This document shows, piece after piece, positions 10,233 through 58,628 of a stretch of 64,000 nucleotides of DNA (the stretch's first letter is position 1; every line of letters starts with the position of its first letter). Below the pieces are notes generated by a model, which ran no database searches, was not told where the DNA came from, and worked only from the letters and a program-made list of their open reading frames with translations. The DNA is from a virus (taxonomy: Duplodnaviria > Heunggongvirae > Uroviricota > Caudoviricetes), in the IMG/VR virus record IMGVR_UViG_3300035034_003552; one strand, 5' to 3'. Both the position numbers and the translations under genes were made by a program.

Positions 10233-12785
10233 ATGCCTCGCATATCAAAGCTAGATGATGGAACATATAAGATAGTACAGAACAAAGCAGAAAGAGAAAT
10301 AATAGAAAAGATAGAAAAAGAGATTGATGATCGGATAGCTGAAGACTTAAGAATAGAAACCAAGTTTGATGATATCACAGACCAGCTCGACTTTGATATA
10401 ACTCAAGTTAGAAATAATTTACAGCAGTTCATAATAGAACAAAATAATGTAAATGACCAGCTACAAAAAAATATAGATACCGAAGAAGCTCTTCGAAAAG
10501 AGGCTGACAACGAGCTCCAGGTAAATATAGATACCGAAGAGGATGAACGCAAAGCTGAAGATCTCAGACTGAACAATAAATTAGATACTGAAGAAGACGA
10601 AAGAATCTATCAGGATTCCATATTAAGAGACGAGATCCTTCAAGAGCAGGCAGCCAGAATCCAGGAAGATGAAAATCTACTAGAAAAAATAGTAGATGAA
10701 GAAACTGCCAGAATTGCAAAGGATACCGAACTCGAAAATAGGCTGGCCACCGAGGAAGATAAAAGGGCCGCGGAAGACAAGGACATCAGAGAAGCCTTAC
10801 AGTTTGAGATAGATGAACGCAAGCTTGATGTAAAGATACTCAATCAAAGACTTGGTACGGAAATACAGACTCGAACAAGTGAAGATAACCGTATTGATGA
10901 TCGTATAGATACTGAAATAGCAGATAGAACAGAAGAAGATATGATTCTGACCAACATGATAATGGATTTAGATTCTGAACTGCAGACGGAATCTAATACA
11001 AGAGAAGCAGAAGATATTAATTTACAGAACCAGCTTAATACAGAAGCAAATACGAGAGAAACAGAAGTAGCTGACCTACAGCTGCAGTTAGATAACGAAA
11101 AACAAAGTAGGATAGATGAAGATAGTAACTTAAATAAAAGATTAGATGACCACACCACAAACAATAATAGTGAATTTAATAGGGTAGATAAAAGAATTGA
11201 CGATGAAGTAAGAGATAGAAATGCTGATGTAGGTAGTCTACAAACCCAAGTTGATAACTTAGATACAATGCTTTCTGATGAGGAAACAGCTAGATTCAAT
11301 TCTGATAAGGATTTACAGGATGCAATAGATGCAGAGGAAGCCGCAAGAATAGCAGGAGACAATAACCTGCAGAACTCCCTCAATGAATCGATAGATCAAC
11401 TACTGGCGACAGAGTTTTACGGTGTAGGAGAAGAAAACTTAGGTAATATTAACACAAGCACTCATACCCTAAATACTAACCAGCAGGTAATACAGAATAC
11501 TAAATACTTTGTAGTCATGAATCCAGATGGTACAGAAGTTATCGGAGATAGCGGCAACAAGGTAAATATTATAGATGTAAGCGGTAAGACAGTTACTTTT
11601 AGCGAGATACCAAACCAGGAGATTATGCTCCAGTTTGCAATCAAGAAGACATTGGGTACTTTACCGGCAGATGCTTTGATTACCTATGATGTTGTTGGTA
11701 CTAAGTTAGATGCAGACATAACTGAAGTCATAGGAGCTGCCTATTATGATGGACGCAAGAATGTATCAGATAATTTCTCTCTAGATGTGAGAATAGAAAA
11801 TGAAATAGAAGACAGAATAAACGCCGATAACACCCTGCAGTCTAATATCGACTCCGAAGAGGCAGCAAGAATTAGTGCTGATAATACTCTGCAAAATAAT
11901 ATAGATTCAGAAGAGGCGGCCAGAATAGCCGCAGATAACGCATTAGAGCAGACTATAGAAGATGAGGTACAAACAGCAATCACTCAGCTTCAGGCGGATA
12001 TAGCAGCCGAAGAACAGGCGAGGATAGAAGCTGATGCAGCGCTTCAAGAAACCATAGACAACGATATCCAAATTGCTATTTCTCAAATCCAGGATGAGAT
12101 AGCGGCGGAAACAGCAGCCAGGCAGCAGCAAATAGCCGATCTACAGGAACAGATAGATAATGACATCCAGACTGCTATTGACCAGATGCAGTCAGATTTG
12201 GACAGCGAAAAAACAGCAAGACAGAATGCAGATGATGACCTACAATCTCAAATAGATACTATTAATACTGATGTAGCTTCAAAATTTGATGACTTATATG
12301 ATGACTTCTACGCCCATCATCACGGTAGTGAATATGTAAATCAAGATGGAGACCAGATGACTGGAGATTTAAGTTTCTCTTCGGGTATGGGAATCAAGTG
12401 GTCAGAGAATACTGATGGAGCCGATATCAGATTTAATAGCACAAGTGACAGCGCGCAGCAGTCCAACCTTGAATTTAGAGTCAGAGACAATATGGACGAA
12501 GGCTTTAAGTTTATAGCCCGCGATAACGATCCTGTATCTGAATTACAATTATTATATTTAAATAGTGATAACTTCGACTACAGAGGTCATGAGATATGGC
12601 ATGCAGGAAATGATGGCCACAATTCTGGCCTTAATGCAGACTTGGTCGACGGAGAACACAGCCAAGAATTAAAAGATAATGCTCGTAAGCAGACTAATGA
12701 ATTAAGAGTAGAGACCAGAACATCAGATCCTACTGATCCAGAGGTGGGTAGAATATGGTTAAGAACAGACTTAGTACCAGAGTAA
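10233..12785 (+). CDS. Long coiled-coil tail fiber protein with heptad-like peptide repeats and a conserved fiber C-terminal region.
   Basis: SD 'aaaggag'. About 600 aa of 'IDTEEA.R.EADN.LQ' / 'AARIAADNxLQxxIDSEE' repeats. 'YAHHHGSEYVNQDGDQMTGDLSF' is a motif shared with the downstream fibers ('GDTMSGSLTI', 'GDTMRGKL'). Confidence 0.7.
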   Translation: MPRISKLDDGTYKIVQNKAEREIIEKIEKEIDDRIAEDLRIETKFDDITDQLDFDITQVRNNLQQFIIEQNNVNDQLQKNIDTEEALRKEADNELQVNIDTEEDERKAEDLRLNNKLDTEEDERIYQDSILRDEILQEQAARIQEDENLLEKIVDEETARIAKDTELENRLATEEDKRAAEDKDIREALQFEIDERKLDVKILNQRLGTEIQTRTSEDNRIDDRIDTEIADRTEEDMILTNMIMDLDSELQTESNTREAEDINLQNQLNTEANTRETEVADLQLQLDNEKQSRIDEDSNLNKRLDDHTTNNNSEFNRVDKRIDDEVRDRNADVGSLQTQVDNLDTMLSDEETARFNSDKDLQDAIDAEEAARIAGDNNLQNSLNESIDQLLATEFYGVGEENLGNINTSTHTLNTNQQVIQNTKYFVVMNPDGTEVIGDSGNKVNIIDVSGKTVTFSEIPNQEIMLQFAIKKTLGTLPADALITYDVVGTKLDADITEVIGAAYYDGRKNVSDNFSLDVRIENEIEDRINADNTLQSNIDSEEAARISADNTLQNNIDSEEAARIAADNALEQTIEDEVQTAITQLQADIAAEEQARIEADAALQETIDNDIQIAISQIQDEIAAETAARQQQIADLQEQIDNDIQTAIDQMQSDLDSEKTARQNADDDLQSQIDTINTDVASKFDDLYDDFYAHHHGSEYVNQDGDQMTGDLSFSSGMGIKWSENTDGADIRFNSTSDSAQQSNLEFRVRDNMDEGFKFIARDNDPVSELQLLYLNSDNFDYRGHEIWHAGNDGHNSGLNADLVDGEHSQELKDNARKQTNELRVETRTSDPTDPEVGRIWLRTDLVPE
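11800..12260 (+). repeat. Imperfect tandem DNA repeats of about 57-63 nt that encode the coiled-coil peptide repeats of the 10233 fiber gene.
   Basis: Peptide series 'ADNTLQSNIDSEEAARIS / ADNTLQNNIDSEEAARIA / ADNALEQTIEDEVQTAITQLQADIAAEEQARIE...' read directly from the sequence. Confidence 0.6.
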
Positions 12786-17139: not shown

Positions 17140-17502
17140 ATGAGTATATTAACTAATACACCTGACTGGAGTGCGCAATCAGATAGAGTAATAGAACCAG
17201 ATTCAGCAAAGAAGTCAGCTGGGTGGCGGCTTGGAGAGGAGCCCCCTCCTGGTTACTTTAACTGGTTCTGGAATATAGTATCAGATTCACTTAGTATTTT
17301 AGACACACATAATCATGATAGCAGATATTACACTAAAAATCACTTCGATTCACATGACCACGACGATAAGTATTATACTAAAGACGATGTTAATAGCATG
17401 CTTGGTTCGACATATATTGAAAGTCCAACAGTTGGTAATATTATAGTTTCAGATACAGAACCAGTTAACGCAAATGAGAACGACATCTGGGTAAAGGTAT
17501 AA
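17140..17502 (+). CDS. Short fiber-adaptor protein: conserved N-terminal 'GWRLGEEPPPGYFNWFW' motif plus two HxHDxRYYTK repeats.
   Basis: SD 'aggagg'. The motif is shared with the 21336, 22686 and 23529 genes. 'THNHDSRYYTKNHFDSHDHDDKYYTKDD'. Confidence 0.7.
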   Translation: MSILTNTPDWSAQSDRVIEPDSAKKSAGWRLGEEPPPGYFNWFWNIVSDSLSILDTHNHDSRYYTKNHFDSHDHDDKYYTKDDVNSMLGSTYIESPTVGNIIVSDTEPVNANENDIWVKV

Positions 17503-21335: not shown

Positions 21336-22109
21336 ATGGAAAATTACGATTTACCAGAGTGGACTCCCGCCGCCAACCTAATAATAAAACCCGATACAGA
21401 ACGAATAAATCTAGGTTGGAACGCAGGAGAAAAGCCACCACCTGGCCACTTTAACTGGTTTTGGAGCACAACCTATAAAGCCTTAGAAGTGCTGCAGGAT
21501 CATAGACATGATGATAGATACCACACCAGAATGGAGATGAGTAACCTATTAGGAAATGTATCCCCTAAAGGTCACCAACATGAAGGTGGGGATGTAATAT
21601 CAAAAGTTTCTCTAGCGGCCATCGCCGAAGAAGCTCAGGACTCAAAATTACTGGAAGGTCGCCAGGCCGAACAGTTTGCAGATAACGTACACTACCACGA
21701 TGATCGATACTACACCGAATCAGAATTAGACAATAAATTAAATCTAAAATCTAATTCTGGCCACACTCACAATTACTCACCTGATGACCACATACACTCA
21801 GATATTTACAAGACAGAAGAAGAAATATATCACCTTGCCTCAATGGTAAGTGTCCAAGATTTATCTATTCTTCAGGGTTCAATAGAGGACGGAGAAAGAC
21901 TACCACTTCCAAGCGGATTTACCGAAAGCGAATGCCAATGGATGGTCAGCCCACGACATGTAGTGACTACAGGTAATACAAATGGTTATGATGACGGGAA
22001 GGGTATAAGGTTTTATGTTGATAACAATAGAGATGTAGTAGCAAGATTTGATGGCTTGGGCGGTATGAGCGGAACAGCAAATTATATGGTAATAGGAGTT
22101 AAAAAATAA
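21336..22109 (+). CDS. Tail fiber paralog: N-terminal PPPGHFNWFW adaptor motif, HxH repeats, C-terminal domain of type II (shared with the 24349 gene).
   Basis: 'GWNAGEKPPPGHFNWFWSTT...DHRHDDRYHTR', 'VHYHDDRYYTESELDNKLNLKSNSGHTHNY'. The C-terminal 'LPLPSGFTESECQWMVS...NYMVIGVKK' aligns with the 24349 C-terminus 'LPIPSGFLRQECHYMAS...NYIVIGVR'. Confidence 0.75.
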   Translation: MENYDLPEWTPAANLIIKPDTERINLGWNAGEKPPPGHFNWFWSTTYKALEVLQDHRHDDRYHTRMEMSNLLGNVSPKGHQHEGGDVISKVSLAAIAEEAQDSKLLEGRQAEQFADNVHYHDDRYYTESELDNKLNLKSNSGHTHNYSPDDHIHSDIYKTEEEIYHLASMVSVQDLSILQGSIEDGERLPLPSGFTESECQWMVSPRHVVTTGNTNGYDDGKGIRFYVDNNRDVVARFDGLGGMSGTANYMVIGVKK

Positions 22110-22685: not shown

Positions 22686-23516
22686 ATGGGATACTTAGAT
22701 GAAGTACCACAGTGGAATCCACCATCACTCAAAAAACATGCCCCAACACCTAAGAAAATAGAAGAAGGTTGGAATATAGACGAAAGACCGCCGGCTGGAT
22801 ATTTTAACTGGTTTTGGAGTGTTACAGCAAAAGCAATACAAGTATTTGATACTCACGATCACGACTACAAATATATAATCAGAGGCGAAGATGGAGCTAT
22901 CTCAGAAGAAATGCTCCAGTCAAACATTATAAATAACGAACATCTCTCAATGGATTTTAACTTAGAAGAGTACGGGGTAGCAGATACAGCACACGATCAT
23001 GATTCCAAGTACCTAAATAAAAATGGTGACACAATGTCTGGATCTTTAACCATAGGGAGAAATGCATTGCTTAAAAAGGTAACAAGTAACTCAGTAGAAA
23101 CCATAATAAGCAGTGATGGAAGAGTCTGGAATGCAGTATATAACGATATAGCTGAGATGTATAAAGCAGATAAATGGCTTAAAGAAAATCAAGTTCTTGT
23201 CTGGGATGGAGAAAAAGTCACAACGACTACTGAGAAAGAAGATAAAAGAGTCATTGGTGTTTATTCTGATACCTACGCTCAATGCCTGGGAGGACAACCC
23301 GATAGTAAGGGTGTAGTACCAATAGGAATAAGCGGAAAAGTAAAGGTCAAAGTGAAAGGACCTGTTAGCTCAGGTGATCTATTAACTACATCTGAAATAC
23401 CGGGAGTTGCTGTTAAATCAGAAAACAAAGAATTAGGAACAATATTCGGAAAGGCAATGACAGATGTCAAGGAAGACAAGATTAAAATTATATGGGCTTT
23501 CATAGCCGTAATATAA
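22686..23516 (+). CDS. Tail fiber paralog: N-terminal adaptor motif, HxH repeats, C-terminal domain of type I (shared with the 26799 gene).
   Basis: 'GWNIDERPPAGYFNWFWSVT...THDHDYKY', 'AHDHDSKYLNKNGDTMSGSLTI'. The C-terminal roughly 150 aa 'GRVWNAVYNDIAEMY...VIGVYSDTYAQCLGGQPDSKGVVPIGISGKVKVKVKGPV' aligns with 26799 'GRVWNSVYNDLAEMF...VVGVYSDTFAQCYGGQPDDEGAVPIGIAGRVDVKIKGPI'. Confidence 0.75.
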   Translation: MGYLDEVPQWNPPSLKKHAPTPKKIEEGWNIDERPPAGYFNWFWSVTAKAIQVFDTHDHDYKYIIRGEDGAISEEMLQSNIINNEHLSMDFNLEEYGVADTAHDHDSKYLNKNGDTMSGSLTIGRNALLKKVTSNSVETIISSDGRVWNAVYNDIAEMYKADKWLKENQVLVWDGEKVTTTTEKEDKRVIGVYSDTYAQCLGGQPDSKGVVPIGISGKVKVKVKGPVSSGDLLTTSEIPGVAVKSENKELGTIFGKAMTDVKEDKIKIIWAFIAVI

Positions 23517-23528
23517 GGAGGTAAATAA

Positions 23529-24335
23529 ATGTCAATAACAAATAAAATTCCAATTTGGAATTCTCCAAATAGTAAGATGGTTAATCCTCCAAGCTCGAAG
23601 ATAAATAGTGGTTGGAATCCCGGGGAAAAACCGCCAGCATACTATTTCAACTGGTTCTGGACCGCAACATCAAAAGCACTTGAAGAAATAAACAATCACT
23701 TACATGATTCAAGGTATGCAAGAATAAGCCACAACCACAATCAAAGTGATTTAGATATCAGCACTCACGAGAATAAAGACTCGGGAATACACGGAGTTGG
23801 AGCAAGTGAGATAGAAAGCACTTACGGAGCCCAGCAAAAAGCTGACATAGCAGAAAATAGGGCAAAAAATTACGCAGAAGATTTAGCAAGTGATGCAGGT
23901 GTCCCAACAGGAGCTGTAATAATGTGGACAGGGTCTACTTCTAATATACCAAACGGTTGGACTCTATGTAATGGTAATAATGGAGCACCAAATCTACAGA
24001 ATAGATTCGTAGTAGGAGCTGGAGCTTCTTATAGTGTAGGCAATACTGGTGGTGCTATATCAGTAAGACTGACAGAAGAACATATGCCATCACACTCCCA
24101 TACGGGTAACACTAGTTCAGGTGGAAATCACAGACATAGGATGAGCGCTAGATCGTGGACACATGCTGGTTTTAATCATATAAATGCTGCTGACACTACA
24201 GGTGCTAGCGGTAGTGTCTATACAGACTACAATGGGGCTCACTCTCATTCCTTTACGACTAGAACCACTGGTGGAGATCAGAGTCACGAAAACAGACCGC
24301 CATATTACGCTTTAGCATATATTATGAAATTATAA
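23529..24335 (+). CDS. Tail fiber with N-terminal adaptor motif and C-terminal phage tail-collar domain.
   Basis: 'GWNPGEKPPAYYFNWFWTAT...NHLHDSRYAR'. C-terminal 'GAVIMWTGSTSNIPNGWTLCNGNNGAPNLQNRFVVGAG...ENRPPYYALAYIMKL' matches the tail-collar signature (xIPxGWxLCNGxxGTPDLRxRFxVGAG...eNrPPYxALxYII). Confidence 0.8.
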   Translation: MSITNKIPIWNSPNSKMVNPPSSKINSGWNPGEKPPAYYFNWFWTATSKALEEINNHLHDSRYARISHNHNQSDLDISTHENKDSGIHGVGASEIESTYGAQQKADIAENRAKNYAEDLASDAGVPTGAVIMWTGSTSNIPNGWTLCNGNNGAPNLQNRFVVGAGASYSVGNTGGAISVRLTEEHMPSHSHTGNTSSGGNHRHRMSARSWTHAGFNHINAADTTGASGSVYTDYNGAHSHSFTTRTTGGDQSHENRPPYYALAYIMKL

Positions 24336-24348
24336 GGGAGGTGGATAA

Positions 24349-26325
24349 ATGCCACTTACTGACGAAGAAATGGAAAATAGGATACTCGAATTAGAGAGTG
24401 CGCTCGAATACCACGACCACATAGTACTATTTGAAAACGGTGGCGGGGGAGCGGACATTAAAAAGAATGCATTAACCTCAGAGCTTTCCACAGAGATCAA
24501 TAACAACTCCTCACACAGACTTACCCTTCAGAAAAACCCTCATGAAACAAGGGCACATCAAATACTTATCACTTCAGGCTCGTATCAGAGCCACAATATC
24601 GAAGAAGCTTTAAATATCATAGAAAATGACAGCCAAATAAATTATGGTGAACTGGAAGAATTCGCCGCACAGAAAACTAACACCATAAAAACCGGTGATG
24701 CCGTAACAAACTGGACTACAGCTGAGGCCTCAACCAAGAACAACAGGGCTCTCTTCGATCTGATAGGCAGTCATAAACATGATTCCAGATATCTTAATAT
24801 AGATGATTTCAATAACGAGATAGACAGGCATTATGATAGTGATGACCATGATGAAAGATACTACACCAAAGATAAGATGAACAGTGACCTCAACCTAAAG
24901 TCTAATAAAACACACCTTCATGATGATATTTATTTAAGGAGAAATCAGCTCGATGATCTGTATTTTAATGTAGCTGACGATGAACTCAATATAGACCTTG
25001 AGCTAATAAAGAATTCACCTAAAGTAATCCTGGACGATAAGAGCACTAACGGTAAGAACATACAGTTTAAGTCAACCAATGAGAGATTAGAGGTCGAAAT
25101 AAATAATAACCTAGCTGCTACCTTAAAGAAGGACTTTAACGTGCTCACATCTGGTGAAATTAAACTGCGGGGAACACCGGTATCCCTAGAAGGACATATC
25201 CATGATAACAGGTATTATACAGAAACAGAAACTCAGGACTTATTAAAAGATAAGTCGGAAAAAGGTCATGTGCACGACCATATATACTACAGAGAATCAG
25301 AAGTAGATAATTTCTTAGACGGCAAAACTGATGTTGGCCATGTGCATGTTGAACACTACACAAGAGAACAGGCTGATGATAGGTTTGTCAATGTAACTAC
25401 TGATTCAATAGAGAAACTTACTGTAGAAGATAAATTAATAATGAATGAGAGAATAGACCTGCACGAAAAAGGAATGCTTTTTAAAAGCTATATGTCTGGG
25501 ATAAATGTTAGCAATGATCCAGGCGGAGAACTGAGCATGAAAATTGATGCCGGCAACTTAGACCAGCTTTATTTGGATACTGACAAAGTAAAGGTTAGAA
25601 GAAACCTTGAAGTTGTTGGCGATATAGAACTGGGCCATCTAATAAACGGTGTCAATATAGAAGACTTAAATGAAGATTACAATTACCATAAGGCTCAGAG
25701 CGATTCTCACCACGAAAAATACACAGACCGCGAAGCAAGAGTAGCAATCTACAATGACTCAAACCACTACGATTTATCCAACCACCAACATAATCATAAT
25801 GATATATATTATAAAAAAGACTTTCTGGATTCAAGGTTCGATCAGAAATCAGATAAAGGCCATGATCATGATGATCAGTATATGCCAATAGATGAGCTGC
25901 AGAAAGAGCTTGATAATAAATCAGATATAGACCACCTTCACGATGATAGATACTACACCAAAGATAAGATGAATGAACAGATAACTCTAATAGGTGACGA
26001 GCTGGCCAGAAAATCAAACAAAACTCATGACCATAATGAAGAATATTACACTCATGATGATGTTGAAAGAATAATAGAAGAAAGAACTGGTAACAGCACC
26101 TATATAGTAAGTGGAGAAATAGTAACTGACATAAATGGTAGGGCCACACTCCCCATTCCATCGGGATTCTTAAGACAGGAGTGTCACTACATGGCTTCTA
26201 TAGGTGAGAATACACTGATACCATATTCCAGTTCTGGAATAGATATAAATAGAAGTAATGGTGAAATAAGAGTGCGTCCAAGCAGCGTAGATTCAGTAAA
26301 CTATATAGTAATTGGTGTTAGATAG
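24349..26325 (+). CDS. Histidine-repeat tail fiber (658 aa): at least 10 copies of an HxHDxRYYTK-type motif, C-terminal domain of type II.
   Basis: 'SHKHDSRYLNIDDF', 'DDHDERYYTKDKMNSDLNLKSNKTHLHDDIYL', 'GHIHDNRYYTETE', 'GHVHDHIYYRESEVDNFLDGKTDVGHVHVEHYTREQADDRF', 'NHQHNHNDIYYKKDF', 'GHDHDDQYMP', 'IDHLHDDRYYTKDKMNEQ', 'THDHNEEYYTHDDVE'. The C-terminus is shared with the 21336 gene. Confidence 0.75.
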   Translation: MPLTDEEMENRILELESALEYHDHIVLFENGGGGADIKKNALTSELSTEINNNSSHRLTLQKNPHETRAHQILITSGSYQSHNIEEALNIIENDSQINYGELEEFAAQKTNTIKTGDAVTNWTTAEASTKNNRALFDLIGSHKHDSRYLNIDDFNNEIDRHYDSDDHDERYYTKDKMNSDLNLKSNKTHLHDDIYLRRNQLDDLYFNVADDELNIDLELIKNSPKVILDDKSTNGKNIQFKSTNERLEVEINNNLAATLKKDFNVLTSGEIKLRGTPVSLEGHIHDNRYYTETETQDLLKDKSEKGHVHDHIYYRESEVDNFLDGKTDVGHVHVEHYTREQADDRFVNVTTDSIEKLTVEDKLIMNERIDLHEKGMLFKSYMSGINVSNDPGGELSMKIDAGNLDQLYLDTDKVKVRRNLEVVGDIELGHLINGVNIEDLNEDYNYHKAQSDSHHEKYTDREARVAIYNDSNHYDLSNHQHNHNDIYYKKDFLDSRFDQKSDKGHDHDDQYMPIDELQKELDNKSDIDHLHDDRYYTKDKMNEQITLIGDELARKSNKTHDHNEEYYTHDDVERIIEERTGNSTYIVSGEIVTDINGRATLPIPSGFLRQECHYMASIGENTLIPYSSSGIDINRSNGEIRVRPSSVDSVNYIVIGVR

Positions 26326-26340
26326 AAAGGAGGATTATAA

Positions 26341-26799
26341 GTGTTTTATTTACTTGATGAAGATACATTAGAGATAAAAGCCTCTCTTAGAGGGAAGCCC
26401 AACATAGAGGAGATAGAAAAAAACGGAATCATAGTCCTAGACTCACATTATGAATACTCTCCTCGAAAACTTGAGGCGGTCAAAAACTATGACAAAATAC
26501 GACTTACCTTCAAGCCCGAGATTAAAACTTACACAGAGGTCAACAAAAATCACATAATAATTAATATAGAAATCCATAAAGAAAATGGAGATATAGATAC
26601 AGAAAGATCAGAAGACTTAACCATATTCAGAGAAGACTATGATAATCCAGATGATACTTTTTTCACCGAGGTAACATTAGAAAATGGTAAAGCCAGAAAG
26701 GAACTAGTAGTTAAAGATACTGGCAAGTATATTATCGAAGTCAGAAACTCTAACTTTAGTGACACCTCTGAGACGGTAGTTGTGGAGGGGATTATCTAA
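26341..26799 (+). CDS. Hypothetical small protein following a fiber gene (GTG start); possible assembly or chaperone protein.
   Basis: SD 'aaaggagg' + GTG; 152 aa. The N-terminus 'MFYLLDEDTLEIKASLRGKPNIEEIEKNG' resembles that of the 22123 product 'MYLLINTDKETIYGFASSKPNTDDLEKNN'. Confidence 0.55.
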   Translation: MFYLLDEDTLEIKASLRGKPNIEEIEKNGIIVLDSHYEYSPRKLEAVKNYDKIRLTFKPEIKTYTEVNKNHIIINIEIHKENGDIDTERSEDLTIFREDYDNPDDTFFTEVTLENGKARKELVVKDTGKYIIEVRNSNFSDTSETVVVEGII

Positions 26800-28940
26800 T
26801 GTCAAAGATTATAAAAAGAACAGATCAGACTTATGAAGAAGTTAAAACTAATTTTGAAATAAACGTTCTCAATGATATAGAAACAATTTTTAAGGATATA
26901 GATGCAGAAATATCAGAAAGAATAACTTCTGATGAAGAACTCCAGATTCAAATAGAAAGCCTCAGTGGAGATCTAACATCACAGGTAAGTTTAATAAACA
27001 ACATGATAACAGAAGAGACTAATAGGATAGACAGCAGAGTAGATCAGGAAATCTCTACTAGGGAAATAGAAGTAGAAAACTTAAATACTCGTGTCGATAA
27101 AGAGATTACCGATAGGAAAAACGAAGTAGATAGGCTTGACACCAGGGTAACAGACGAGGCTAATAAAAGGCTCAATGAAGATACACAGCTGCAGAATAAT
27201 ATAGATACACTGGAAAACTATACAGTTAATAATGTATCAAGGATAGATACTGACATATCGAATCTCGAAAATAGGACATCCTCCCTTAATGCAACTGTCA
27301 ATAAAACAATAAATGACAATGAAACAGATAGTATAAATAGGGACAATGATCTGCACGATAAAGTAGATCAAAACGAGGTAGAAAGTATTGACCGAGACCA
27401 GGAGATAAAAGATAAACAGTTTTACATACTGGCCCAGGAGGAAAAGAGTACCTCAGTAGATACAACTTCTGTTACTTTATCCACTGACCTAAACGTTGTA
27501 AGTGACCCCGATTATGTAACAATAAAGAACTTAGATGGATCAGAAGTATTAGACAGCAGCGGTAATCCTGTAGTGGCTGTCTCGATGTCCGATAAGACGG
27601 TAACACTAAGTGAGGCGCCCAATGAGCCGATAAAGATAGAGTTTGCCCATAGGAAGCATTTCTGGAACCTCTCAGCCGACTCGATGCTGGTTGGAGATAT
27701 AGTATCCTCCAGAAAAGACGCAGACATATCAGAGATAATTGGAGTGAAGTATTTTGACGGAACAAAGTCAGTATTCGATAATGATTCACTTGATGTAAGA
27801 ATTGACACTTTAGACAGTGATATTAATTCAAGAGTGGACAATGAAGTCTCTACTTTAAACAGCAGGATGGATAGTGAAGTCTCAACCTTAAACTCCAGAA
27901 TTACCTCAGAAAGAAATACCCTAAACGATAGAATAGATTCTGAAGTAAGTTCGCTGGATTCTGATATAGCCAATCTGGATTCAAGGGTAACTTCAGAGAA
28001 AAATACCTTAAATAACAGAATAGATAGTGAGGTATCCACATTAAACTCCACCATAAACAGTGAAGTTTCTACATTAAATAGCAGAATAGATACTGAAGTA
28101 TCTAATCTTAATACAGCAATAGACACAAGTCATACCTCGCTTCAAAATCAGATAGACTCACTTTCAGATGATTACAACTCTCACCTCCATGATAGCAGAT
28201 ACATTATGGAGGCTGGAGATACAATGCGCGGGAAGTTAAACATGAATGGTAATAAGTTTGTTGTTTATGGAGACAACTCAGATGGTGCATATCTTAATAG
28301 TGATAGCGGCATTTCTGGCCCTAATGATAACTTATTTATCGCAAAAACAGATGCACAGGGCATTCCCGATGGCAACATAGTAATAGGCTGGCATAACTTG
28401 GCTAACGGTTCTAAAGGGAAAGACATCACTATAGATCCTAACAATCTAATCCATCTTCACGAAACTACCCGTCTCTCTCAAGGGGCCACTCTTCAGAAGA
28501 CAAAATCAAATGGAGCAACAGACACTATAATAGATGATCATGGTAGAGTCTGGAACTCTGTTTACAATGACCTGGCAGAGATGTTTGACTGTGACGTAGA
28601 TGCTTCTCCTGGGGACATAATGTCGATTAGTGATGGTAAAGTAATAAAATCTCAACGATATTACAGCGAGAAGGTAGTTGGTGTTTACTCAGACACTTTT
28701 GCTCAATGTTATGGTGGTCAGCCTGATGATGAAGGAGCTGTTCCAATAGGGATAGCAGGTCGGGTTGATGTTAAAATAAAAGGTCCCATAGAAGAAGGTA
28801 ACTTAATAACTTCAAGCAAGGAGGAGGGTGTCGGACAGAAGGCAGATGTTCACGTTGTAGGCACGGTAATAGGAAAGGCTTTAGAGAACAAAGAATCAAA
28901 GGGAGTAGAAAGAGTCAAGATGCTCATACTAAATAACTAG
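26799..28940 (+). CDS. Coiled-coil tail fiber with 9-11 aa tandem peptide repeats and C-terminal domain of type I.
   Basis: Long 'ETNRIDSRVDQEISTREIEVENLNTRVDKEITDRKNEVDRLDTRV...' coiled coil. Repeat block 'RVDNEVSTLNSRMDSEVSTLNSRITSERNTLNDRIDSEVSSLDSDIANLDSRVTSEKNTLNNRIDSEVSTLNS'. 'NSHLHDSRYIMEAGDTMRGKL'. The C-terminus is shared with the 22686 gene. Confidence 0.75.
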   Translation: MSKIIKRTDQTYEEVKTNFEINVLNDIETIFKDIDAEISERITSDEELQIQIESLSGDLTSQVSLINNMITEETNRIDSRVDQEISTREIEVENLNTRVDKEITDRKNEVDRLDTRVTDEANKRLNEDTQLQNNIDTLENYTVNNVSRIDTDISNLENRTSSLNATVNKTINDNETDSINRDNDLHDKVDQNEVESIDRDQEIKDKQFYILAQEEKSTSVDTTSVTLSTDLNVVSDPDYVTIKNLDGSEVLDSSGNPVVAVSMSDKTVTLSEAPNEPIKIEFAHRKHFWNLSADSMLVGDIVSSRKDADISEIIGVKYFDGTKSVFDNDSLDVRIDTLDSDINSRVDNEVSTLNSRMDSEVSTLNSRITSERNTLNDRIDSEVSSLDSDIANLDSRVTSEKNTLNNRIDSEVSTLNSTINSEVSTLNSRIDTEVSNLNTAIDTSHTSLQNQIDSLSDDYNSHLHDSRYIMEAGDTMRGKLNMNGNKFVVYGDNSDGAYLNSDSGISGPNDNLFIAKTDAQGIPDGNIVIGWHNLANGSKGKDITIDPNNLIHLHETTRLSQGATLQKTKSNGATDTIIDDHGRVWNSVYNDLAEMFDCDVDASPGDIMSISDGKVIKSQRYYSEKVVGVYSDTFAQCYGGQPDDEGAVPIGIAGRVDVKIKGPIEEGNLITSSKEEGVGQKADVHVVGTVIGKALENKESKGVERVKMLILNN
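27797..28130 (+). repeat. Tandem about 27-33 nt DNA repeats encoding the (D/T)SEVSTLNSRI peptide repeats inside the 26799 fiber gene.
   Basis: Read directly. The repeats also create the spurious antisense ORF 27512..28126 (repetitive 'SILLFKVETSLS'). Confidence 0.6.
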
Positions 28941-29299: not shown

Positions 29300-29629
29300 A
29301 TGTACGAATATAAAGCAGTTGTAACAAGAGTAATAGATGGTGACACATTTGAAGCCAATGTAGATTTAGGATTTAAAACCTATCAGAGACAAACCTTCAG
29401 ACTAAAGGGTGTTGATACTCCAGAAGTTTATGGAACAGAGGAGATAAGAGGTCTGGAAGCAAAAGATGTTGTTGAGAATATGATTTTAGGCAAAGAAGTT
29501 ATTATCGAGACAGAAAAGACTGGCAGCTTCGGTAGATGGATAGCAGATGTAACGGTACCCAGAGAAAATGGGGGAATTAATTTAGGAGATTTACTAATAA
29601 AGAATGGTTTGGCAGAAATATACGAATAG
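29300..29629 (+). CDS. Thermonuclease (staphylococcal nuclease, SNase-like) family protein.
   Basis: SD 'aggagg'. 'VIDGDTFEANVDLG...QRQTFRLKGVDTPEV' matches the SNase signatures (DGDT ... RLxGIDxPE); 109 aa. Confidence 0.7.
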   Translation: MYEYKAVVTRVIDGDTFEANVDLGFKTYQRQTFRLKGVDTPEVYGTEEIRGLEAKDVVENMILGKEVIIETEKTGSFGRWIADVTVPRENGGINLGDLLIKNGLAEIYE

Positions 29630-56237: not shown

Positions 56238-58628
56238 ATGCCAATAAACTATATAACTAAAAGAGATAAAGAGATAGTAGAATTTGACAGAGAAAAAATA
56301 GAGATTGCAGTAAATAATGCAGCCGTAGATGGTAATTTCGAGGAGAATCCCTTAGAACTGGGTATAAAGGTCGCAGATATAGTAGTACGAAAACTGCTTC
56401 CTGCTTATGAGGACAATACCAAAAACGATACTCCAACTGTGGAGCTTGTTCAAGATCTTATTGAGGAAACATTGATGGAACTAGGAAACTTCAAGATTGC
56501 TAAAAAGTATATTATATATAGAAGTAAAAGAGAAAGTGTTAGAATCAAGAAAAATAAAGAAGATGATAAAAACTCTATCCTTTCAAATGAATTCCTGAGC
56601 AAGTATAAACACCAGCCTAACCCTTTCCCAACAGAGCTGGGGGAATTTATTTATTATAGAACCTATTCGCGATGGTTGGAAGTAGAACAGCGCCGCGAGT
56701 ATTGGTGGGAAACAGTTAAAAGAGCTGTAGAATACAACTGCTCACTTGCACCAACAACTGAAGAAGAAGCTGAGGAATTATATGATAATGTATATAACTT
56801 AAGAAACTTTGTTGCCGGTCGTACATTATGGACAGCGAGTACAGAATCATCTAAAAAATACGGAATGAGTAACTACAATTGTTCCTTTACAGTTATAGAT
56901 AGCTTTAAGGCATACCAGGACATTTTCTACTTGCTTATGATAGGCAGCGGAACTGGATTTCGCGTTCTTCCTCGTGATGTTGATCATCTGCCTAAGATCA
57001 GAACTAATGTGGAAATTATTCATAAATATTATGACCCTATTGAGAAGGACGAGAGGCGTGAATATACCGACTTCGACTTTGATGGTAGAGTTGCTACTAT
57101 TAATGTTGGAGACTCAAAAGAGGGCTGGATTCAATCCCTAGAGTATTACTTTAAGTTCTTAACCGAACATTCTTATAGACCAGTAAGTAAAATCATCTTT
57201 AATTATGACTCCGTACGCCCGAAAGGCGAGAAACTTAAGACATTTGGTGGTACAGCTTCTGGCCATGGAAGTCTAAAGCGTATGTTTACTAAGGTTGATA
57301 AACTATTACACAGCAAAAGCGATAGAGATACAGACGATCTGGATAGAGTTAAGCTAAAGCCTATTGACGCAATGGATATTTCAAACATTATTGCTGAAAA
57401 TGTAGTTAGTGGTGGAGTAAGACGCTCCTCTCAAATTTGCCTCTTTTCTGCTGATGATAAAGAGATTGCCCAGGCTAAAAGCAAGTTATATGAGCAGGTA
57501 AATGGAGAATGGGTAATAGATGAAGAAATAGCACACCGTCAAATGAGTAATAACAGTATCTTTTACGAAGAAAAGCCAACCAGAGAACAACTTAAATGGC
57601 ATGTTGAGCAAATGCGTTTTAGCGGAGAACCGGGATTCATTAATGCAGAAGAAGGAAGGCGCCGCAGGGAAGATTTTAAAGGTGTAAATCCCTGTGCTGA
57701 GATTCTGTTAGATTCTAAGGGTGTATGTAACTTAACCTCCCTTAATGTAATGAGCTTTGTAGAAGACGGTGAGCTTGATAGAGAAGCCATGATGAACTCA
57801 CAAAGATTATCTGCTAGAGCCGGTTATAGGATGGCCACAATAGAGTTTGAACTGCCAGAATGGGGTTACATCAATGACAGAGATAGACTAATTGGGCTAT
57901 CAGTTACTGGGTGGCAGGATATGGTGAATGCTGCTGACTTAGATAAAGATGAAGAAGCACAACTATTAAGACAGCTAAAAAATGCTGGCCAGGATGCTGC
58001 AGAAGAAATAGCGGCAGAATTAGATGGTAACGAACCTAAGCTAGTCACTACCGTTAAGCCAGAAGGCACTCAGACACAAATGCCTACGGTATCAAGCGGA
58101 CTCCATTATAACCATAGTGCATATTATTTAAGAAGAGTTAGAATTTCTGCTTCTGATCCGCTGGCCCGGGTGTGTGAAGAATTGGATTATCCAGTACACC
58201 CTGAAACCGGTCAGGATCCTGACAATCCAGAAACACTAGTCATAGAATTCCCAGTACGCGCTCCAGAAGGCAAAGTCAAGGATGACGTTGGAGCCCTAGA
58301 ACAGTTAGAAACCTACAAGATGTTTATGAAAAACTATGTTGATCATAATGCTTCGATCACTGTTCATGTCAAGGATGACGAATGGGAAGATGTAGAAGAA
58401 TGGTTATGGGAAAACTGGGAATATACAGTTGGTATCTCCTTTCTTTCTTATAATGACAGCTTCTATGAACTAATGCCTTATGAGGAAATTACCGAAGAAG
58501 AATACTTAGATAGAGCAGAAAAAATGAAAGAGTTTAAGCCCGGTCTAGTTGCTAAGTATGAAACTGAACAGCTTGAGAGAGAGGTTGAGGGTAGTTCCTG
58601 TGAGACTGGAGCCTGTCCGATCAGATAA
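56238..58628 (+). CDS. nrdJ: Ribonucleotide reductase, class II (adenosylcobalamin-dependent, NrdJ-type), with an N-terminal ATP-cone-like region.
   Basis: SD 'aagggag'. N-terminal 'ITKRDKEIVEFDREKIEIAVNNAAVDG' (ATP-cone-like), 'NPCAEILLDSKGVCNLTSLNV' (class II active-site Cys/Asn motif NPCxEIxL...CNLxSxN), C-terminal 'SSCETGACPI' redox Cys pair; 796 aa. Confidence 0.8.
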   Translation: MPINYITKRDKEIVEFDREKIEIAVNNAAVDGNFEENPLELGIKVADIVVRKLLPAYEDNTKNDTPTVELVQDLIEETLMELGNFKIAKKYIIYRSKRESVRIKKNKEDDKNSILSNEFLSKYKHQPNPFPTELGEFIYYRTYSRWLEVEQRREYWWETVKRAVEYNCSLAPTTEEEAEELYDNVYNLRNFVAGRTLWTASTESSKKYGMSNYNCSFTVIDSFKAYQDIFYLLMIGSGTGFRVLPRDVDHLPKIRTNVEIIHKYYDPIEKDERREYTDFDFDGRVATINVGDSKEGWIQSLEYYFKFLTEHSYRPVSKIIFNYDSVRPKGEKLKTFGGTASGHGSLKRMFTKVDKLLHSKSDRDTDDLDRVKLKPIDAMDISNIIAENVVSGGVRRSSQICLFSADDKEIAQAKSKLYEQVNGEWVIDEEIAHRQMSNNSIFYEEKPTREQLKWHVEQMRFSGEPGFINAEEGRRRREDFKGVNPCAEILLDSKGVCNLTSLNVMSFVEDGELDREAMMNSQRLSARAGYRMATIEFELPEWGYINDRDRLIGLSVTGWQDMVNAADLDKDEEAQLLRQLKNAGQDAAEEIAAELDGNEPKLVTTVKPEGTQTQMPTVSSGLHYNHSAYYLRRVRISASDPLARVCEELDYPVHPETGQDPDNPETLVIEFPVRAPEGKVKDDVGALEQLETYKMFMKNYVDHNASITVHVKDDEWEDVEEWLWENWEYTVGISFLSYNDSFYELMPYEEITEEEYLDRAEKMKEFKPGLVAKYETEQLEREVEGSSCETGACPIR

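Follow-up and report, generated by a model that had tools for sequence, protein, structure and literature searches.

A 24-residue histidine-pair repeat in the tail fibres of an uncultivated phage: a sister of the PTR repeat and a probable metal-binding element

The tail fibre genes of one uncultivated virus raise the question of why a structural protein should carry pairs of histidines at almost regular intervals along its length. The window considered here is a stretch of 64,000 nucleotides (nt) from a member of the Caudoviricetes (IMG/VR record IMGVR_UViG_3300035034_003552), and the gene in question encodes a fibre protein of 658 amino acids (aa), in which a first-pass annotation had noticed a motif built around HxH, two histidines separated by any residue. 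The repeat is a 24-residue unit that belongs, as judged from profile comparisons, to the superfamily of the Pfam family PTR (PF12789, "Phage tail repeat like"), and by analogy with fibres of solved structure its HxH pair probably holds a metal ion at the axis of the fibre. What is new is the definition of a 24-residue subtype, the way in which it is related to PTR, the finding that the two histidines of a unit are kept or lost together, a variant form of the terminal unit, and the scale of the family.

A repeat of 24 residues and its conservation

With an invariant tyrosine as the anchor for calling units, the 658-aa protein resolves into 11 units in three arrays (3 + 3 + 5), in line with the earlier count of at least ten copies. 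The units follow one another at spacings of 23 and 24 residues in the first array, 24 and 24 in the second, and 29, 24, 24 and 31 in the third, with a mode of 24, and the repeat can be written (G/S)HxHDxRYYT(E/K)xExDxxLxxKxD. The protein contains 12 HxH sites, as against 2.0 +/- 1.4 in shuffled sequences of the same composition, and neighbouring structural proteins mostly contain 0-2 each. When the stricter pattern H.H[DN].[RKIQE]Y is counted, 8 matches are found where 0.006 would be expected by chance, and all structural proteins of the window have 16 where 0.017 would be expected; in a six-frame scan of the window, 16 of 16 strict matches lie inside fibre genes on the plus strand. The proposal that HxH is invariably coupled to D-x-R-Y-Y does not hold for this protein. 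The first Tyr is present in 11 of 11 units, the Asp after the second His in 7, the Arg in 4 and the second Tyr in 6, and the units at residues 165 and 452 have lost their first His. The full HxHDxRYY consensus is typical of canonical relatives elsewhere, and not of the divergent 658-aa protein.

Within the arrays no tandem repeat was detected at the DNA level by Tandem Repeats Finder, and the mean identity between units of the 658-aa protein is 47 % in nucleotides and 27 % in amino acids, which argues that the units are old and that their conserved positions have been held by selection. The units at residues 165 and 529 share a 35-nt stretch (24847-24881 and 25939-25973) with 94 % identity, encoding HD(E/D)RYYTKDKMN; no other two units are nearly so similar, and the likeness is missing from an orthologue (P0002), a pattern that suggests recent intragenic conversion.

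Two orthologues were available for comparison, P0002 with about 61-62 % identity and P0003 with 44 %. The locus of the 61 %-identical orthologue (L002), on a 202-kb contig, is syntenic with the window and has kept all motif sites, including those of the paralogous fibre genes described below. Across the 658-aa protein and both orthologues the motif histidines are invariant at 20 of 20 positions, compared with 36 % of all positions (Fisher p = 7e-10), and in the same comparison His is the most conserved of the common residue types, being invariant at 84 % of its positions. These alignments indicate that the HxH pair is under strong selection. Outside this small group, a tblastn search of GenBank phages with the 658-aa protein gave no match, and NCBIfam returned nothing for any fibre of the window.

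Relation to the PTR family and extent of the repeat

The sole Pfam match of the 658-aa protein is to PF12789, at 24.4 bits (E 3.2e-5, aa 478-531); the same model gives 17.5 bits for P0002 and no match for P0003. Most canonical relatives with the 24-residue unit bear PF12789 in precomputed annotation, and yet the model is erratic on this type: P0020, with nine perfect units, scores 21 bits and P0040 scores 71. The erratic scores can be attributed to the fact that the canonical PTR unit is of a 22-residue type, as in gp12 of Alteromonas phage vB_AmeP-R22Y (hereafter R22Y gp12), which scores 84 bits and has the unit sHtHxIxDVtGLqxaLdgKxx. The two types are alike: in both, HxH recurs periodically and leads into a helix-type segment that ends in LxxK(S/A)x. 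They differ in that the unit of the 658-aa protein has two extra residues directly after HxH; its array does not follow the 22-residue HxHxIxDVtGL pattern, the modal period being 24 and HxH being followed by DxRYYTExE.

A two-unit profile of the 24-residue repeat (A1) was aligned by hhalign with a profile of canonical 22-residue PTR units (A5), those of R22Y gp12 among them; the alignment had a probability of 83 % and E 9e-6 over 32 columns, with a 2-residue gap directly after HxH. Moreover, 51 of 160 family proteins hold both types of unit and switch between them in register, a 24-residue unit being followed by a PTR unit at 24 residues and a PTR unit by another at 22. Such switching is seen in relatives, the 658-aa protein having the 24-residue type only. 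Because of the profile alignment and this in-register interchange, the 24-residue unit is regarded, on sequence grounds, as a sister subtype within the PTR superfamily.

The repeat had been thought distinct and possibly undescribed, which can no longer be maintained, as it is a sister of PF12789, most of its canonical members are already annotated, and the family runs to about 6,900 clusters. The 658-aa protein is thus a divergent new member of a catalogued, widespread and structurally uncharacterised repeat family. The first-pass annotation had also named what would count against metal binding, a match to an annotated fibre-repeat family with a known non-metal structure; the family proved to be annotated, as PF12789, and has no known structure. 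For annotation in general, the commonest variant of the repeat is overlooked or given too low a score by the Pfam PTR model, and a dedicated model would improve the annotation of fibres. As 22- and 24-residue units can replace one another in register, the rods appear to be modular and could be of use to fibre engineers.

The extent of the family was assessed by searching 1.84 billion cluster representatives with profile A1. At E <= 1e-3 it matched 6,928 proteins, which come from viruses and prophages; the number was 2,442 at E <= 1e-10 and 406 at E <= 1e-30, and in some proteins 25-40 stretches matched. The family consensus is x(G/S)HxHDDRYYTE(T/S)E(I/V)DxxLxGK(S/A)D, and the commonest spacing is 24 residues. 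Among the matches listed, more than 120 genome stretches encode the exact pattern HxHDDRYYTE, with hosts in the Firmicutes, Actinobacteria, Proteobacteria, Bacteroidetes, Chloroflexi, Saccharibacteria, Planctomycetes and Thermotogae, as well as Methanobrevibacter. A tblastn search with a canonical array returned three archaeal-virus records only, from tailed viruses of methanogens, a small number that is probably due to low-complexity masking.

The relatives carry a range of fibre domains, including the fibritin foldon, collagen, the endosialidase chaperone (S74), Phage_tail_C, the P2-type tail-collar fibre N-terminal domain and Mtd_N. That the proteins of the window are of fibre type, as first supposed, is supported by these trimerising domains, by the location of the locus in a virion gene module, and by matches of the small paralogues to tail-fibre families of the PHROG collection; for the 658-aa protein itself, PTR is the sole direct fibre-family match. 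Side by side with these, a very abundant fibre protein of 422 aa (P0170, P0205 and about 50 near-identical sequences) combines 24-residue units with PF22337 (Phage_fiber_rpt). One cluster of it has 147 member sequences, and the contigs on which it lies, some about 97-110 kb long and others about 245-312 kb, imply a common uncultivated phage group.

Only one solved entry has PTR-type units in its sequence. This is PDB 9D93, from a cluster-A mycobacteriophage, whose gp4 ('tail collar fibers') includes AHDHVAADVTDLDSAI and SHTHSIANVTGLQDALDEK in its sequence and is matched by the PTR profile at E 7.6e-11. These units, unlike those of the 658-aa protein, are of the 22-residue type and stand isolated rather than in an array. 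The N-terminus of gp4 resembles gp6, the 'collar spacer' of the same entry. In gene 4 of Mycobacterium phage Mule (L006) there is a 20-aa unit, SSHTHSIANVTGLQDALDEK, which recurs in 453 phage records, mostly of mycobacteriophages, with about 130 identical copies.

Metal binding on the fibre axis and its rivals

The pairing of the histidines bears indirectly on their role. In counts taken across family units, which are phylogenetically non-independent, an anchor that includes no H, D or R recovered 1,483 units with both histidines, 193 with neither and 6 mixed, and the anchor DxRYYT recovered 850 with both, 124 with neither, none with the first only and 5 with the second only. The His-less units come from 35 different proteins, every one of which also has units with His, and they mostly read G-x-L; Leu in place of the second His fits a residue that faces the core of the fibre. 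In the same units Asp falls from 91 % and Arg from 83 % to about 60 % each, a drop that fits a partial second-shell role of the kind proposed for Glu46 and Arg43 at the phi11 site discussed below.

The precedent of T4 gp37, on which the idea of metal binding was first based, is sound. In solved structures Fe is bound octahedrally by HxH on the trimer axis, not only in T4 gp37 but also in P2 gpV, phi92 gp138 and the R1/R2 pyocin fibres, and in these examples it is buried on the axis and inaccessible (PMC6116203). The T4 gp37 needle (PDB 2XGF) and the R-type pyocin shaft likewise repeat HxH along the fibre, with trimeric sites of six His around a buried axial Fe (PMC6116203). Their sites are set, however, in interwoven beta structure with no regular 24-residue period (PMC12609058, PMC6116203), whereas here a short helix is predicted after each HxH. 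Searches for similarity to gp37-type fibres yielded no Pfam fibre-repeat family but PTR at E <= 1; in the PDB, neither the repeat profile nor the whole protein matched a fibre chain of the gp37 type at E <= 10.

The nearest architectural analogue is the stem of phi11 Gp45 and of the 80alpha receptor-binding protein (RBP), where a His clasp joins one helix to the next and Glu46 and Arg43 form an acid/base second shell, to be compared with the flanking Asp and Arg of the repeat (PMC4901313, PMC7048315). In phi11 Gp45, Fe is held on the axis by six His at the junction of two triple-helical bundles (PMC4901313), and the 80alpha RBP has the same six-His Fe site (PMC7048315). The difference is that the phi11 and 80alpha stems have a single His-X7-His site that is not periodic, whereas the 658-aa protein has His-X-His; a PDB search gave no sequence match of the phi11 Gp45 type. 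For the sister 22-residue type an iron prediction has already been made, since R22Y gp12 was published with 'six potential iron-binding domains', its HxH iron binding being derived from AlphaFold modelling and docking only (PMC11705849).

A different likeness links the repeat to fibritin, in that many family members contain or end in the Fibritin_C foldon. T4 fibritin (gpwac) is a trimeric rod in which short coiled-coil segments are broken by non-helical inserts. Fibritin is not known to have HxH in its inserts, and the length of its segments is variable; the 658-aa protein, for its part, has no foldon in a Pfam scan. The frequent occurrence of Fibritin_C among relatives ties the repeat to fibritin-like trimeric rods. 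In one metagenomic relative (P0004) a stretch similar to the foldon of T4 fibritin, AYEADAPKDGGKYNRQNGNWVP, lies at aa 124-167, between its repeat arrays.

Taken with the strict pairing and the trimerising domains of relatives, these analogies make metal coordination on the trimer axis the best available explanation of the repeat. The fuller proposal, which we consider somewhat more probable than its rivals together, is of a trimeric fibre whose rod consists of short three-helix segments clasped by six-His metal sites that confer register and stiffness. The rod would comprise the three repeat arrays with two non-repeat domains between them and would end in a small C-terminal tip. Each unit would start with an extended HxHDxRYY portion, continue with a short helix that takes in about 8 residues at ExEvDxLL, and close with a short linker of the KSD type. 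Three chains would run parallel and in register, both histidines of each unit would face the three-fold axis, and the six histidines would form an octahedral site around a buried metal, for which iron is the likeliest candidate by precedent. The flanking Asp, Arg and Tyr may supply second-shell and inter-chain contacts around the site. Such clasps could bring the chains into register as they fold and lend stiffness to a rod in which no coiled-coil segment is long enough to be stable by itself, and lone clasps at the domain junctions of the small fibres described below might serve the same role.

Several points weigh against this reading. About 11 % of family units have neither His and keep the rest of the unit, from which it follows that the fold has no strict need of the metal site. 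The units of the 658-aa protein are themselves divergent, with Arg in only 4 of 11 and one His gone from two, and its PF12789 score falls short of the 27 bits set as the curated gathering cut-off. For the 24-residue unit neither a solved structure nor a measurement of metal was found, the repeat profile having nothing significant in the PDB, and PDB searches with the 658-aa protein, P0004 and R22Y gp12 likewise gave no significant structural relative. Both AlphaFold monomer models, one of the whole 658-aa protein (mean predicted local distance difference test score, pLDDT, 33.5) and one of a 3-unit array from a 40-sequence alignment (mean pLDDT 52.8), are unreliable, and agree only on a short helix over ExEvDxLL following an extended HxHDxRYY; a Foldseek search of the PDB with the 3-unit model found nothing meaningful. 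The identity of the metal is a guess, as T4 gp12 was crystallised with Zn at its HxH, possibly from the preparation (PMC6116203).

Two entries in the PDB contain parts of the unit: in 80alpha FibU the string NHNHDERY is present in a chain that is unresolved beyond residue 123, and in DT57C LtfA, of which the N-terminal part alone is modelled, YTKtEVDSaLadKaD units represent the helical half without HxH. Fibres of Bas63, Sf14, Alteromonas A5 and a Burkholderia fibre, all solved by electron cryomicroscopy, were considered and set aside as gp37-type needles or spike tips that do not have the 24-residue unit. A literature search on the motif string found nothing relevant.

The alternative that deserves the most attention, unlikely as it appears, is that the unit is purely structural and free of metal, its His, Tyr, Asp and Arg forming a ladder of hydrogen bonds, stacking and salt bridges in the core or at the interface of the trimer. 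It draws on the G-x-L units, which stand among His units in 35 proteins with the remainder of the motif intact and so show that the fold tolerates loss of the pair, and on the fact that iron binding by PTR-type units is known from prediction alone, the claim for R22Y resting on modelling and docking (PMC11705849). A both-or-neither pattern, however, is what would be expected of a site that needs two histidines per chain and is harder to obtain by generic packing, and the solved trimer-axis sites described in these studies all hold a metal, usually iron (PMC6116203, PMC4901313). Another, improbable reading makes the pairs a switch that responds to pH or redox state: once protonated or stripped of metal at the cell surface, they would loosen the rod and set off a conformational change during infection. 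The His side chain does titrate near neutral pH, and the authors of the phi11 study suggest that the stem may flex or rearrange by way of its Fe site (PMC4901313); eleven sites along the rod, together with those at the domain junctions of the paralogues, nevertheless resemble structural staples more than they do one trigger. The switch is in any case compatible with metal binding and would be secondary to it.

The 'Ferrojan Horse' idea, in which exposed iron hijacks siderophore receptors of the host and the HxH elements bind the receptor, has been cited for HxH-bearing fibres of marine phages (PMC11705849). It is very hard to reconcile with this repeat, since iron in the solved examples is buried on the axis (PMC6116203), the units lie in the shaft and not in the C-terminal tip, and the repeat is found in viruses of Gram-positive bacteria, of bacteria of the candidate phyla radiation (CPR) and of methanogenic archaea, whose envelopes are very different. 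Finally, the array might have been a by-product of recent tandem DNA duplication or of low-complexity sequence, for which the 35-nt stretch shared by units 165 and 529 could be adduced. This last explanation is refuted by the invariance of the histidines across orthologues, the absence of a DNA-level tandem repeat and the low nucleotide identity between units; the occurrence of the same unit in many phyla also speaks against it.

If metal binding on the axis is correct, this very common module would hold one ion per 24 residues, which is far denser than in T4 gp37 and would allow figures to be put to the suggested binding of trace metals by phage fibres (PMC11705849). It would also explain how register is kept in rods made of very short helical segments. 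A bolder generalisation, offered tentatively and with more doubt than belief, is that the 24-residue unit and PTR together constitute an uncharacterised 'metal-stapled segmented coiled coil', with a buried six-His metal per unit at regular intervals. A trimer of the 658-aa protein would then hold about 9-10 ions, and a trimer set of the seven fibre genes would have about 19 sites; in that event the approximately 6,900 clusters across bacterial and archaeal viruses would represent a large unrecognised class of viral metalloproteins, with a direct bearing on the amount of trace metal held in virus particles.

Paralogous fibre genes and genome context

The layout of the 658-aa gene and the positions of the units in the other fibre genes are collected in Table 1. 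The C-terminal domain of the 658-aa protein is presumed to be a distal or receptor-binding tip.

Table 1. Features of the 658-aa fibre gene and repeat units in the paralogous fibre genes of the window
Feature	Position (nt)	Strand	Details
658-aa fibre protein, intact open reading frame (ORF)	24349..26325	+	5.6 % His; identical protein P0001, orthologues P0002 and P0003
N-terminal region, aa 1-139	24349..24765	+	mostly helical (low-confidence model)
H22-D-H24, after N-terminal helix	24412-24420	+	invariant in orthologues
Repeat array 1, aa 140-212	24766..24984	+	units at aa 142 (HKHDSRY), 165 (DDHDERYYTK), 189 (HLHDDIY)
Non-repeat spacer domain 1, aa 213-280	24985..25188	+	beta-strands (low-confidence model)
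Repeat array 2, aa 281-354	25189..25410	+	units at aa 283 (HIHDNRYYTE), 307 (HVHDHIYY), 331 (HVHVEHY); spacing exactly 24
Non-repeat spacer domain 2, aa 355-449	25411..25695	+	
Repeat array 3, aa 450-583	25696..26097	+	units at aa 452 (degenerate, DSHHEKY), 481 (HNHNDIYY), 505 (HDHDDQY), 529 (HLHDDRYYTK), 560 (HDHNEEYY)
C-terminal domain, ~75 aa	26098..26322	+	beta-rich; well conserved in orthologues
Degenerate terminal unit, 850-aa fibre gene 10233-12785	12315..12341	+	AHHHGSEYVNQDGDQMTGDL at aa 695
Two units, 120-aa fibre gene 17140-17502	17308..17379	+	HNHDSRYYTK at aa 57, HDHDDKYYTK at aa 72
Three units, 257-aa fibre gene 21336-22109	21501..21815	+	HRHDDRYHTR at aa 56, HYHDDRYYTE at aa 119, HIHSDIYKTE at aa 152
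Two units, 276-aa fibre gene 22686-23516	22854..23018	+	HDHDYKY at aa 57, terminal unit HDHDSKYLNKNGDTMSGSL at aa 103
One unit, 268-aa collar-type fibre gene 23529-24335	23697..23723	+	HLHDSRY at aa 57
Terminal unit, 713-aa fibre gene 26799-28940	28182..28208	+	HLHDSRYIMEAGDTMRGKL at aa 462, end of coiled-coil region

The motif had been reported in six other fibre genes of the window. This stands for the genes at 17140 (2 units), 21336 (3), 22686 (2), 23529 (1) and 26799 (1), but the gene at 10233 has to be treated separately, as its odd HHHGSEY site is accounted for by a terminal-unit variant, HxH..Y...GDxMTGxL, which is found in genes 22686, 26799 and 10233 and in unrelated family members. 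Genes 17140, 21336, 22686 and 23529 have in common an N-terminal module of about 55 aa (PxW..GW..EkPPxgyFNWFW), which matches tail-fibre PHROGs, leads directly into an invariant HxHDxxY at residues 57-63 and is followed by more units in the first three; these small paralogues match tail-fibre PHROGs 2126, 7389 and 1800. The single clasp of the small paralogues lies either right after this module or right before a GDTMxGxL-type domain, and therefore at domain junctions.

The 268-aa fibre (23529-24335, +) has at aa 118-268 a C-terminal domain of the tail-collar or T4 gp10_C-like type, with a match to phrog_1800 at E 1.4e-32 and sub-threshold Pfam matches to Collar and Gp10_C. Three extra HxH sites in this domain (SHSH, NHRH and AHSH) are unrelated to the 24-residue unit, and recall the HxH metal site of T4 gp12. 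In the 713-aa fibre (26799-28940, +) a long coiled coil rich in Ser and Asn repeats every 11 residues (..EVSTLNSRIDS..), a period that is partly reflected in a 33-nt tandem repeat of 3.1 copies at nt 28004-28104. In the orthologous locus L002 the corresponding gene encodes just 202 aa, which indicates that the gene of the window has been extended or fused.

Genes flanking the 658-aa ORF match virion structural proteins of 0305phi8-36-like phages. The window as a whole is a distant relative, with about 30 % amino-acid identity, of the lineage of this Bacillus jumbo myophage, and its source appears to be a large myophage that has not been cultivated. The HxH repeat motif is absent from the homologous fibre module of 0305phi8-36, which argues that the repeat is a mobile fibre module rather than a trait of the lineage. 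Directly downstream of the 658-aa gene is a 152-aa ORF (26341-26799, +), found at the same position and with the same length in L002; Pfam and PHROG scans gave no family match for it, and it is a candidate fibre assembly chaperone. After the fibre block there follows a 109-aa ORF (29300-29629, +), the counterpart of which in the orthologous locus has an SNase (staphylococcal-nuclease) domain, and further downstream the window encodes the large subunit of ribonucleotide reductase (56238-58628, +; phrog_367, E 5e-168).

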